Below the pieces are notes generated by a model. That model made no database searches. It saw nothing but the letters and a program-made list of their open reading frames with translations, and had not been told where the DNA came from. Of a stretch of 64,000 nt of DNA, positions 2,489 through 57,623 are shown piece after piece. Source of the stretch: a virus. How positions within the stretch are numbered: position 1 is the first letter of the stretch; each line of letters starts with the position of its first letter. A program made the translations under genes and the position numbers. Location of the stretch: UHGV virus genome UHGV-1351068; one strand, given 5' to 3'.

Positions 2489-3327
2489 TATGATTTCCAT
2501 ACAGAAGTAGCAGAGTAGCGTTTGCCTTTCGACATGAACTGCTGCAGTGGTAACATGACTACATTCGCCCAATCAGCCGGTTTTATCTCAATTAAAGCAC
2601 CCTTTATATTACCAGGAATATATGCTTTAATCATTTTGTCAGCGCCAGCAAATCCTTTAACCTGGCTCCAGTTTATCTTTAATCTGGTCTTATTAGATAT
2701 CACTGGCGTATTAGCATACTGTTTCAGAAGTTCTTCTAAAAACTGCTGACGAGCCTTTGGCGGAATGTAGTGAAGGTTTAACCCATACATCAATGTGGTT
2801 GTACCTTGCTTTCCAAGACCAAGATAAACTATCAAAGGAAATTTATCCCAGAATGGAAGAGTGTCTTTGTGCTTAGCGTCATACATGTAAGCATATAGCT
2901 TTCCAGGTTGAGGCTTGGTTACAGAATGACCACGTATATTTTTCTTTATAGTTTCTGCAAACCATTTAGCAGATTTATTGTTTACTGCTGCGCCTTCATT
3001 ACGAATTTTATCTTTGATAGAGCTTCGAAATGAATTTACCATCACAAGAGCACGCTCTTGCTTGGTCATTTTATTAGCAGGTTTTTTCTGAATTTCTGCC
3101 ACTTTAACTGCAGCTTTAATTCTTGACGCATGACGAGCCATTGCTTTACTGAACGTAGCAGGATTTATTCCCTTGCTTTCAGCGAACGCTTTAGACGTCA
3201 TTCCTTTTTTACGAGCAGCAGAGTATTCAACTCCTAACGCTACCCATTGATTTTCATTACGGGATTTAGCTTTAGGTGATTCTGCGGCTTCAGTGATAAA
3301 TTCGAATATAGCCATCAGCCTTTCCAT
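2488..3327 (-). CDS. 2: DNA end protector gp2
   Basis: 279 aa (T4 gp2 is 274 aa). Conserved [23 protein letters not shown] region. Synteny 3-2-4. Confidence 0.85.
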
Positions 3328-55899: not shown

Positions 55900-56268
55900 T
55901 TACTGTTTAGTCCAATTATCCATGTTTAATTTACCAACCTTTTTCATTTGTTCAATTAAAGCATCGGCACGATTACGACCATTTTCATACCAGGTTACAT
56001 CTTCTGAGTAACCGTCTTCTTCATCTGTGTAGGTTTCAGAACGAATACGACCAACAACTGGAGTGTTCAGAACATATACAGAACCTGTGAACCAGTTTGT
56101 TAAAGTGATATGCCAGCAGAAATCATCTGATGGACCGTCCGGTGTCATGCATGGAACGATATCACCTTGAACTTTAGACAAAATCCACATTTTCTCATGG
56201 ACAGTTTGAGCTTTGTAACCGTCATGGTCTTTAGTCTTGATAGTTGCGTTCAGGTTGATGGTATTCAT
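55900..56268 (-). CDS. hypothetical early protein
   Basis: 122 aa. SD GGAGAA. Lies immediately downstream of early promoter copy 4. Its 5' leader is near-identical to that of the gene at 55256. Confidence 0.5.
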   Translation of the reverse strand: MNTINLNATIKTKDHDGYKAQTVHEKMWILSKVQGDIVPCMTPDGPSDDFCWHITLTNWFTGSVYVLNTPVVGRIRSETYTDEEDGYSEDVTWYENGRNRADALIEQMKKVGKLNMDNWTKQ

Positions 56269-56279
56269 TTTATTCTCCG

Positions 56280-56340
56280 TTGTCCGTTTGGGTGGTACAG
56301 GTCTATAGTAACCTTGTTGAACTTAGAAGTAAACAACTTT
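56280..56340 (-). promoter_or_regulatory. early promoter cassette (PeSL-like copy 4, upstream stem arm degenerate)
   Basis: Minus strand: aaaaaaGTTGTTTACT-N17-TACTATAGACCTGTACCACCCAAAC. About 70 nt is near-identical to copy 3. Confidence 0.6.
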
Positions 56341-56354
56341 TTTCATTCTGCGGA

Positions 56355-56384
56355 AAATAAAAAAGGGACTCCCGAAGGAGTCCC
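56355..56384 (-). terminator. rho-independent terminator
   Basis: Minus strand: GGGACTCC-TTCG-GGAGTCCC followed by TTTTTTATTTT. Confidence 0.7.
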
Positions 56385-56389
56385 TGAAC

Positions 56390-56566
56390 TTATGCTTTCG
56401 GCTTACCAAAACGAGAAGCATCATCGCGAAGAACCGCACGAGCCCGACGCATGATTTTCTCAACCGTCTGATTGATACGCTTGTTCGACCCACGCTTGTA
56501 GCCAGCGCGTTTAGAGGTACCAACAACTTCTTTTACTGCAGTTTTTGCTTTAGCTTGTTTAGCCAT
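56390..56566 (-). CDS. small highly basic protein (58 aa from MAKQAKAK)
   Basis: Sequence MAKQAKAKTAVKEVVGTSKRAGYKRGSNKRINQTVEKIMRRARAVLRDDASRFGKPKA. Lys/Arg-rich. Start uncertain: the track's 68-aa version begins 30 nt upstream. Confidence 0.4.
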   Translation of the reverse strand: MAKQAKAKTAVKEVVGTSKRAGYKRGSNKRINQTVEKIMRRARAVLRDDASRFGKPKA

Positions 56567-56596
56567 TTTATCATCTTCCATTTTGGAGAAATACAT

Positions 56597-56935
56597 GGGA
56601 GCACGTTCTTCCGAGGTTCAACTTCTTTCGACAGTTCTTTCGGTTGTAGCTCCCGCAAGCCCTCAAGGGGGTACGTTTAAACTCTTATCTGTTGCACACC
56701 GTTAGCTTAAAGGTTCCGGGTCCGATTTATCGGGGATAAGATATACACCGATGGATGTATAGGCCTTGAGGCGTACTCCCGATTGGCCATCGCCTCGGGG
56801 TAGCATGCACTTGCCGTTTATTTTCTAGCTGCACTTTGGTAGCAAATCACCGTTGGTTTCGGGTGTTTTACGTGGGGATAACCAACAACGTCCACATCAT
56901 ACGTTACCCATGCGTACACATGGTGGGCGTACAAA
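56597..56935 (-). ncRNA. ORF-free GC-rich hairpin-dense island; candidate structured non-coding RNA or long structured leader
   Basis: 340 bp with no ORF above 36 aa in any frame. About 48-50% GC against about 40% for the flanks. Multiple stems, for example GAGGCG...CGCCTC, GTTGGTT...AACCAAC, GGGAGC...GCTCCC and CCGA...TCGG. Confidence 0.3.
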
Positions 56936-57184
56936 TTACTTCAGCGTTACCACAAAGTGGCGAACAGCTTTGCGAGCAGCAGAACCAAGATGCTTAGCAT
57001 ACTTCAGTTCGTCCATCGCTTCTAAAGTATCACGAAATTCAGCTTGTGCTGGGTTCAGGTGTTTAAACCCTTTCAGAACTTCCAGTGTTTCTGCATAGAT
57101 ATCGATTGAAGCACCGTAGTTTTCGTGACCGGAATTCCATGCATTACGTTGGAGTTCCAGAGCTTTAGTAAGTTGTTTGTTCAT
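56936..57184 (-). CDS. rIII: rIII lysis-inhibition accessory protein (start trimmed to MNKQLTKALELQRNAW)
   Basis: 82 aa from the Met with SD GAGGAA, the same length as T4 rIII. Position immediately downstream of gene 31, as in T4. Confidence 0.65.
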   Translation of the reverse strand: MNKQLTKALELQRNAWNSGHENYGASIDIYAETLEVLKGFKHLNPAQAEFRDTLEAMDELKYAKHLGSAARKAVRHFVVTLK

Positions 57185-57299
57185 TGAATCGTTCCTCAAA
57201 TGAGGTTAAAATTTGGTGGACGGTAACCGAGGTTTAGCTCGGGCATCCACCGCGTAGAATTGCTCGGGTAACTAATTGTCCGACGCCCAATTCATATTA

Positions 57300-57623
57300 T
57301 TATTTATATACGCATGCAAGGGACTTATAATGACAAGTCACAAACTTCTGCCGAATTTCTTTGGGTTTCTTCACACCTGCTGCTACTAACGGATGAGGTA
57401 CGTTTCTGATATTACCAACAGGCAGTGGAGTCAAATCACCGACTTCAACAAATCCTTTCGGTACATCATCACCGATAGAATAGATTTCACACATATCCGG
57501 CAGTTGTCCTTGTTCTTCTTTTCCAAGAATAATACCGGAAGGAGAAACAATTTCATCACCTTGCTGTGCAGGTTCAGATACGAGAATTACATACTCGCCT
57601 AGAGCTTTAATTGGAAGTTCCAT
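57300..57623 (-). CDS. 31: co-chaperonin gp31 (GroES-like)
   Basis: 107 aa. Long near-identical runs to T4 gp31: [45 protein letters not shown]. Confidence 0.92.
57301..57308 (-). promoter_or_regulatory. late promoter for rIII
   Basis: Minus-strand TATAAATA overlapping the gene 31 stop. Followed by a GC-rich structured leader. Confidence 0.5.

Follow-up and report, generated by a model that had tools for sequence, protein, structure and literature searches.

Introduction

In T-even phages, structured mRNA leaders (gene 32, gp43 and the RegA sites) are commonly bound by the phage's own small nucleic-acid-binding proteins, and the T4 tRNAs, as well as the T4 RNAs rnaC and rnaD, are matured from longer transcripts. 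Here we describe a complex folded RNA that lies in the untranslated spacer between the rIII and 30.9 genes of such a phage. The DNA analysed was a stretch of 64,000 nucleotides of the UHGV virus genome UHGV-1351068 (hereafter the window), to which Klebsiella Jiaodavirus records such as vB_Kte_K65PH164 and UTI-K1 (T4-like, Straboviridae) are about 99-100% identical. An original prediction, made from the letters of the window, had pointed to positions 56597-56935 (hereafter the island) as a candidate structured RNA without open reading frames (ORFs). Within this island we found a conserved RNA domain, referred to below as the core. T-even phages are among the best-studied viruses, and yet about half of the sequenced relatives sharing this locus carry this complex folded RNA, which matches no Rfam family.

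The core resembles the riboswitch aptamers (lysine, SAM-I and cobalamin), which are likewise about 140-170 nt long. In both, a short helix that closes the fold adjoins conserved nucleotides of a junction, which is four-way or multi-way, and neighbouring arms contact each other through a covarying kissing loop of 6 bp. These aptamers are also conserved mainly at unpaired positions, and they too lie upstream of a gene on the same transcript. Unlike them, the core gave no match to the riboswitches of Rfam 15, was not found to have an expression platform overlapping the closing helix, is separated by a variable distance and by other modules from the start that it would regulate, and is dispensable in close relatives. 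Like the core, T4 rnaC and rnaD (species 1 and 2; 119-139 nt) are phage-encoded RNAs, but they belong to the tRNA-cluster locus, rnaC carries a tRNA-like T-arm, and neither is matched by the covariance model of the core (model R1).

Another part of the same spacer, module A, folds as an H-type pseudoknot, and in this it is like the leader of the T4 gene 32 mRNA, to which it has no sequence relation; both are mRNA leaders of T-even phages. The product of 30.9 encoded downstream is small and very basic, a further likeness to the T4 translational operators, and RNA binding by gp30.9 would be an analogy only. Short intergenic cassettes of another kind, PeSL, consist of an early promoter and a terminator stem-loop and are repeated at many T4-type loci (PMC2839356, PMC4122927). 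The island is similar to PeSL cassettes in being a short conserved intergenic cassette at the joints of modular shuffling of T4-type genomes (PMC2839356, PMC4122927). It differs in that it carries neither promoter nor terminator and its modules are single-copy; a PeSL-like unit lies 3' of 30.9 instead. With REP and BIME elements the island shares the mosaic of small hairpin motifs, placed between cistrons of one transcript in strain-variable combinations. BIMEs are simple palindromes in hundreds of dispersed copies, whereas the island modules are found at one locus and the core has a complex tertiary architecture.

Architecture of the core RNA

The helices and loops of the core are listed in Table 1 (window coordinate = 56816 minus core position). 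Helices P0, P1, P4 and P5 form a four-way junction without linker nucleotides, and the whole is enclosed by P0, which adjoins an invariant C-G pair. P1 leads through an 8 x 6 internal loop into P2, and the loop of P2 kisses that of the neighbouring arm P4 over 6 bp. P5 leads into a three-way junction with P6 and P7. About 30 of the unpaired nucleotides are nearly invariant, including the stretches AAGUGCAU (core positions 4-11), GCUAA (110-114) and GCAACA (121-126). The minimum-free-energy (MFE) fold of the single sequence 56676-56822 recovered P0, P2, P4, P5, P6 and P7. A tertiary pair between UGCA of J1/2 and UGCA of J7/5 may be considered, but both sides are invariant and give no covariation signal.

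All stems listed in the original prediction were located in the sequence, and CCGA/TCGG among them corresponds to P6, which covaries. The GAGGCG/CGCCTC stem is present as well, but covariation prefers the rival pairing of GCUACCCCGA with UCGGG-A-GUA-C-G-C, and changes in Cronus, EnC15 and Serratia phage 4S disrupt GAGGCG/CGCCTC. This stem and the small P3 hairpin of RNAalifold (GGC/GCC, loop L2) were therefore both dropped, on covariation, for P2 and the kissing loop. A tertiary pair of J2/1 CCUCAAGG with CCUUGAGG of module C1 was also rejected; the two are complementary in the window and show no covariation in 4S, Cronus and EnC15.

In the record of Tequatrovirus SA21RB, a WebGeSTer 'rho-independent terminator' (633-671 of its locus) is placed in the core, on the P2 hairpin, without a U-tract; this is probably a mis-annotation arising from the RNA structure. 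Several other records annotate short hypothetical ORFs over the core.

Covariation and sequence constraint

The core was aligned as 20 distinct variants (alignment A1) and as 35 distinct variants (A2), collected from loci of Gaprivervirus, Moonvirus, Kanagawavirus, Roskildevirus, Karamvirus, Mosigvirus, Tequatrovirus, EcS1, Serratia phages and others, with further loci from IMG/VR and metagenome contigs. By RNAalifold, 39 pairs were obtained, 16 of them with compensatory double changes. After addition of P0 and the kissing loop (full model), standard pairs were observed in 98.0% of the 1678 cells of A2, and double compensatory changes in half of the pairs (24/48). None of 500 column shuffles of A2 reached any of the five measures used; since the 35 variants make up only a handful of clades, such shuffle statistics overstate independence, and the more reliable signals are the number of distinct pair types and a control with displaced partners. 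When the 3' partners were slid by 1-3 columns in this control, only 3-8 pairs with double changes and 28-42% pairing were left. An exhaustive column-pair scan for tertiary contacts was too noisy, again because of the few clades.

The sequence of the P0 flanks varies among phages with complementarity kept, as in UAAAC/GUUUA (window), UUAUAGC/GCUAUAA (SP18), UAUAAGC/GCUUAUA (L020, one of our collected loci) and AUAUUAC/GUAGUAU (EcS1), and double changes were found in five of the six pairs. For the kissing loop, all cells pair (100%) and three of the six pairs covary, with concerted changes to UGAUGG/CCAUCA, CUAUGG/CCAUAG and CAAUGA/UCAUUG. The structured RNA predicted on the transcribed minus strand thus received strong support from covariation among related phages, a check that had been named beforehand.

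Conservation of the core is concentrated in junctions and loops: 39% of the unpaired columns are variable, as against 54% of the paired ones. The identity to the window was 84-99% in nine representatives of other genera and 75.5% in the outlier EcS1, while rIII, gp31 and 30.8 of the same phages showed 66-78% nucleotide identity. Conservation is higher in the core than in the protein genes beside it, and the core's nearly invariant unpaired nucleotides and covarying tertiary contact are marks of specific-binding RNAs. In the strand test, 98.0% of cells were paired in sense against 94.5% in antisense, and 59 cells hold G-U pairs, which make the structure strand-specific. These results altogether show that the core is an element constrained strongly at the RNA level, specific to the sense strand and folding autonomously.

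Folding energy was less telling. The z-scores in sense were -1.35 for the island and -1.80 for the core, with -0.75 and -1.04 in antisense, which are mildly unusual values. At about -1.4 to -1.8 they are close to the 'near 0' that had been given as speaking against a structured RNA, and the thermodynamic test is the weaker one here.

An element working at the DNA level, namely a replication origin, a recombination hotspot or a protein-binding site, would suit a GC-rich and inverted-repeat-rich island whose module boundaries act as recombination joints, and a decayed protein gene may be considered together with it. This explanation is scarcely credible in view of the strand-specific structure given by the 59 G-U cells, for which reason the replication origin suggested in the original prediction is disfavoured. 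Furthermore, the kissing loop has no rationale in DNA, and neither tandem nor iteron-like repeats were detected. As to a decayed gene, no reading frame is open in all variants, a 34-aa ORF being interrupted by TGA in Cronus, and no Pfam or PHROG match was obtained for six-frame peptides.

Relation to known RNA families

Among the 4227 models of Rfam 15, including riboswitches, ribozymes, group I and II introns, RNase P, tmRNA and 6S, no gathering-level match was found in the 64 kb. At E <= 10, only chance matches to snoRNA and sRNA models were observed for 56200-57400, and none overlapped the core in seven diverse relatives. ARAGORN detected no tRNA or tmRNA gene in the window. No match on rnaC or rnaD was obtained when T4 68000-76000 was searched with model R1 and filters off; the best score (8.8 bits, E = 0.26) lay elsewhere in that stretch. 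Resemblances to SAM-I P1/P3 strings, to GGGAGUACG of 16S h27 and to RNase P strings are taken as coincidence, as the pairing registers differ and no Rfam match was obtained.

By blastn, the core had no match among 5,426 genomes of E. coli or the plasmids of PLSDB, and an invariant 19-mer of the core had none in GTDB representative genomes, indicating that the core is phage-specific. Searches of the literature by sequence string and by keyword found no published description. The core therefore appears to be an undescribed RNA family, of the kind known as 'complex-folded orphan RNA motif'.

Self-cleaving ribozymes are common, patchily distributed passengers in the intergenic regions of phages, and the core, with its junctions, loop-loop contact and closing helix, has an architecture that would suit one. 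A new self-cleaving ribozyme, or the remnant of a mobile intron, could separate the rIII and 30.9 messages. We consider this very unlikely. Neither the window nor the seven relatives gave a match to a ribozyme or intron of Rfam 15, Intron_gpI included, at E <= 10, and the core is found at one genomic locus only. The empty site of T4 and the filled site of SA21RB are both in non-coding RNA, so that there is no exon to restore, and no endonuclease ORF or remnant of one was detected. A group I intron or homing-endonuclease remnant was rejected on these grounds, and the decayed mobile element or gene put forward in the original prediction likewise found no support in Rfam introns and ribozymes, in Pfam and PHROG, or in the reading frames of the variants.

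Distribution and exchange of the core

When the island was compared by blastn with 50,697 phage records, 413 records were matched at 414 places, that is, in one copy per genome. Most of the island was matched in 163 records, which are Klebsiella, Raoultella and Enterobacter phages. For Escherichia, Shigella, Yersinia and Salmonella phages, a piece of about 135 nt alone was matched, at about 94-95% identity. The core matches were always located between rIII and 30.9 in the orientation of the genes, and span phages of about ten Enterobacterales host genera. Since the surrounding locus is common to about 795 records, roughly half of the phages with this locus have the core. Among 40 IMG/VR loci identified through rIII, the core was present in 15, and the remaining 25 gave no match to model R1 even at E <= 10. 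A second pattern scan of IMG/VR yielded mostly chance matches and no new member by R1, and a scan of metagenomes yielded near-consensus copies only.

Presence or absence of the core differs between close relatives. The rIII-30.9 spacer of T4 is 244 nt long with the slot empty, CTCTTGAATGT, GA and ATGATGACGGG following one another and the joint being GAATGT|GAATGATG. In SA21RB the slot is filled by about 155 nt (P0 and core), as TATTCTTATAGC-core-CTATAAGGT, and no target-site duplication was detected in comparison with T4. The view that there is no T4 counterpart holds for the 134-nt core, but not for the spacer as a whole, as T4 has the pseudoknot and downstream hairpin modules. Natural controls are thus available: the slot of T4 is empty, and phage Bas47 'AlbertHofmann', which infects E. 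coli K-12, has the core.

The order of the core and the pseudoknot module is not fixed. The core is located 3' of the pseudoknot in the window, CIP9, PEi26 and Serratia phages, and 5' of it in SP18, Merlin, Cronus, EnC15 and EcS1. In two loci (L061 and L062), the whole spacer and 30.9 are 94-99% identical to the window, against 71% for rIII, which indicates transfer of a block by recombination. The core is hence a discrete cassette exchanged among T-even phages. Rather than being mobile by itself, it would spread when T-even phages infect the same cell and undergo homologous recombination at the conserved modules on either side of it.

Possible function of the core

The weak, AU-rich P0 next to an invariant C-G pair, the invariant junction and loop nucleotides and the kissing contact together point to an aptamer-like domain, and the strict confinement of the core to one spacer 5' of 30.9 suggests action on that mRNA. 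On this analysis we see an even chance that the core acts in cis on the rIII-30.9 mRNA as an aptamer-like element for a putative binding partner. It would work as RNA within this mRNA through its compact fold, and the partner would be a small molecule or a conserved protein of host or phage. Binding of the partner would alter how the 30.9 cistron downstream is processed or translated, or how stable it is. The model resembles a riboswitch or a protein-binding leader, with an output that would not depend on the immediate neighbours. The core is a conserved aptamer-like domain with a covariation-supported structure, as expected of riboswitches.

Several observations weigh against action in cis. 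No expression platform was found, P0 overlaps neither a terminator nor the ribosome-binding site of 30.9, and alternative pairing involving P0 was not detected either. The core is always found 5' of 30.9 on the same transcript, at a distance from the 30.9 start that varies between 108 and 190 nt, with other modules in between. Phages without the core retain 30.9, and any regulation by the core must thus be dispensable. The diversity among the 35 variants is limited, and recent block transfer, as in L061 and L062, accounts for part of the high identity of the core. Finally, the cassette is portable, which would suit excision and action in trans almost as well.

Action in trans would require release of the core from the rIII-30.9 transcript, for instance by RNase E cleaving in the AU-rich sequences flanking P0. 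The core would then accumulate as a stable RNA and, as a decoy or sponge, titrate or mimic a conserved factor of the host or of defence. In favour of this, P0 closes a self-contained domain whose 5' and 3' ends are adjacent, and the order of this domain relative to its neighbours is free. It has the accessory pattern of presence and absence that is typical of counter-defence cargo, together with extreme conservation over about ten Enterobacterales host genera. The core has no promoter or terminator of its own, and an RNA acting in trans would therefore need processing. An AT-rich run 5' of the core (AAATAAAC, TATAAGC, TATAATC) was first read as a -10 element, but it is the 5' strand of the covarying P0, and the promoter scan of the minus strand was negative. 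Against action in trans, the core was never found outside this spacer and is unrelated to T4 rnaC and rnaD, and mimicry is not suggested by any similarity to sequences of E. coli or plasmids. We regard action in trans as somewhat unlikely, though not far behind action in cis.

A broader proposal, possible though on balance doubtful, is that a new functional RNA class limited to T-even phages is represented here, with the core as its aptamer or catalytic centre, the rIII-30.9 spacer being an exchangeable 'RNA toolbox' with modules swapped between genera. Such a class may be exemplified by a riboswitch for a phage- or infection-specific metabolite or an immune signalling nucleotide, by a decoy against an Enterobacterales defence or RNA-processing factor, or by a ribozyme.

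Other modules of the spacer

Although the island had been proposed as a single unit, the spacer proved to be a mosaic of several small RNA modules, each folding independently (Table 1). For module A, in which the 5' strand of stem 2 lies within the loop of stem 1, both stems covary in 23 phages including T4. Stem 1 occurs as ATGTGG/CCACGT, ATGACG/TGTCGT and ATGGCG/TGCCGT, and stem 2 as GTTGGTT/AACCAAC, TTGTGAG/CTCACAA, TTGGTAGT/ACTACTAA and CAAGGTT/AATCTTG; the GTTGGTT/AACCAAC stem of the original prediction is stem 2 of this conserved pseudoknot. Nearly every T-even phage examined has module A in its rIII-30.9 spacer (T4 copy at about 3108-3160 of its locus, minus strand), and we know of no earlier description of it.

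The remaining modules are hairpins. Module X is located 3' of the core in Cronus and IT22, where an A-to-G change retains a wobble pair. For module D, homologues with CGC...GCG or CAC...GUG were recognized by eye in other genera. In module C1, GCC..GGC of Cronus replaces CCC..GGG, and the module lies 5' of the core in EnC15 and EcS1 and 3' of it in the window. Modules A and C1 are each single-copy in the window and are thus not dispersed repeats. GGGAGC/GCTCCC, listed in the original prediction, indeed closes a hairpin, module C2, just 5' of the 30.9 start region; one compensatory pair was identified by RNAalifold among six variants (CCGA/UCGG to CUGA/UCAG), and unrelated hairpins occupy this position in other genera. 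The direct repeat GCTACC is real and looks trivial.

Such a spacer could be passive structural ballast, protecting against Rho loading, RNase E scanning and 3' exonucleases in a REP-like manner and having no specific partner. It is made up throughout of closed hairpin modules whose order is shuffled, it separates two cistrons of a single transcript, and the slot of the core may be empty, as in T4, or filled by another hairpin (motif B, below). Ballast leaves unexplained the near-invariance of about 30 unpaired nucleotides, the covarying kissing loop with the linker-free four-way junction, and the 84-99% cross-genus identity in 9 of 10 representatives, and the folding energy is just mildly better than that of shuffles. 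We take this explanation to be distinctly improbable. Apart from the question of function, covarying RNA modules, exchanged between genera, make up the rIII-30.9 spacer as a mosaic, the 244 nt of T4 included, which represents modular evolution at the level of RNA domains.

Additional modules were observed in spacers of other phages. Motif B, a hairpin of about 45 nt (GCGUCAGNAAAAGGUUANCUGUNUAAG), takes the slot of the core in some Mosigvirus- and Dhakavirus-like phages (loci L039-L041, L043, L045, L048 and L056, at about 1850-1900; also L032 and L047). It shows the change CAGA/UCUG to CAGC/GCUG, and its position relative to the pseudoknot varies, like that of the core. An extra multi-stem module of about 115 nt, UCGAGGAGCCGUCGAACUGUC...AAUGAUU-UGCG-AAUCAUU...GACAGUUUUACGGUGUACCUCUUGA, is present in spacers of the T4, SP18 and Mosigvirus types (T4 locus about 3165-3255, minus strand; also L001, L087 and L088). 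It is absent from the window, and in AlbertHofmann it has a covarying inner hairpin, UAUCGAUU-UACG-AAUCGAUA. On two IMG/VR contigs (L067 and L068, 1500-1950), a tRNA gene cluster directly adjoins a C-terminal fragment of rIII with the first 13 nt of the T4-type spacer, TTTATTGGAGATT. Both sides share GGAGATT, with which the first tRNA begins at its 5' end, and recombination at this short stretch of identity is suggested.

Table 1. Features of the rIII-30.9 locus and of the core RNA in the window
Feature	Position	Strand	Remarks
Complete core RNA domain, about 143 nt	56678-56820	minus	covariation and MFE fold
Conserved core, 134 nt	56682-56815	minus	covariance model R1: 168.3 bits, E = 1e-35, exactly these ends
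P0, closing helix	UAAAC 56816-56820 with GUUUA 56678-56682	minus	weak, AU-rich
P1	core positions 1-3/52-54		
P2	core positions 12-21/34-45		long, bulged
P4	core positions 55-61/68-74		
P5	core positions 75-81/127-133		
P6	core positions 83-86/91-94		GNRA-like loop
P7	core positions 95-99/115-120		15-nt loop
Loop L2, CGAUGG, 5' kissing-loop partner	56787-56792	minus	pairs with CCAUCG
Loop L4, CCAUCG, 3' kissing-loop partner	56749-56754	minus	A2 columns 35-40 with 74-79
Module X, small hairpin CCAUGU-GUAC-GCAUGG	56908-56923	minus	just 3' of rIII stop codon; predicted, weak evidence
Module A, H-type pseudoknot	56852-56897	minus	stem 1 AUGUGG/CCACGU; stem 2 GUUGGUU/AACCAAC
Module D, GGUGAUUUGCUACCAAAGUGCAGCUAGAAAAU, short hairpin UGC...GCA	56821-56850	minus	by-eye comparison
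Module C1, GUACCCCCUUGAGGGCUUG, mini-hairpin followed by CUUG	56656-56674	minus	in nearly all spacers including T4
Module C2, branched hairpin GGGAGC...GCUCCC	56597-56654	minus	directly 5' of 30.9 translation start region
30.9 translation start region, AUGUAUUUCUCCAAAAUGGAAGAUGAUAAAAUG	56564-56596	minus	probable start codon 56564-56566
gp30.9 homologue, 58 aa, very basic	56390-56566	minus	PHROG 1427, E = 2e-33
Intrinsic terminator, 3' of 30.9	56364-56385	minus	sole terminator-like site between gp31 gene and gene 30.8
gp30.8		minus	Pfam Phage_30_8
rIII, lysis-inhibition accessory protein, upstream cistron	56936-57184	minus	PHROG 1457, E = 5e-40; rIII in annotation of related records
gp31 co-chaperonin	57300-57623	minus	
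T4 late promoter, TATAAATA	57301-57308	for minus-strand genes	upstream of rIII; identically annotated in SA21RB

Locus, transcript and neighbouring genes

The island was correctly recognized as ORF-free and GC-rich. The stretch 56597-56852 is touched by no ORF of at least 55 aa and is the largest such gap within the 64 kb; with a cut-off of 40 aa the largest gap is again found here (56706-56835). The GC content of the island is 0.499, as compared with 0.396 for the window and 0.413 and 0.415 for the 1-kb flanks, at the 99.4th percentile of 339-nt windows. Scanning for promoters and terminators revealed neither a sigma-70-like promoter nor a terminator on the minus strand within the island. The island is therefore an internal untranslated spacer of the rIII-30.9 transcript of Klebsiella Jiaodavirus.

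The small basic-protein gene that had been noted downstream is present and encodes the gp30.9 homologue, but its start had been placed at 56596, as by the ORF lister. The homologous start is ATG 56566 (T4 gp30.9 begins MAKQ), and from this comparison the start of 30.9 is most likely 56566, which gives a spacer of 369 nt (56567-56935). Upstream of it, the nucleotides of AUGUAUUUCUCC and an AUG are conserved, yet out of frame or terminated in Merlin and L054. The start region forms a small hairpin, UCCA/UGGA, in partial overlap with the Shine-Dalgarno-like GGAAGA. Homologues of gp30.9 are confined to T-even phages, and no Pfam domain, PDB match or named homologue was found for the protein. Its AlphaFold model shows one helix and a disordered basic N-terminus with low confidence (mean pLDDT 67).

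The nucleotides of AUGUAUUUCUCCAAAAUGGAAGA (56564-56596, minus strand), 5' of the 30.9 start, are conserved. Some phages have this sequence in the frame of 30.9, others (Merlin, L054) as a short upstream ORF that terminates, and the annotated lengths of 30.9 vary accordingly (58, 68 and 69 aa).

Next in size among the ORF-free gaps is the gp31-rIII spacer (57185-57299, minus strand), with 100 nt at the 40-aa cut-off. It contains the stems GGUGGA...UCCACC and CCGAG...CUCGG, located 3' of the late promoter, and may be a structured leader of rIII. On the other side, at about 56290-56385 (minus strand), the terminator of 30.9 is followed by a T4-early-type promoter, GTTTAC...TACTAT, forming the PeSL-like cassette 5' of 30.8. 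In several close relatives the match to a 1.5-kb query is split in two and spans about 2.4 kb, corresponding to an insertion of about 0.9 kb near 30.9/30.8 relative to the window. In UTI-K1, an additional ORF of 510 nt is located at this insertion.

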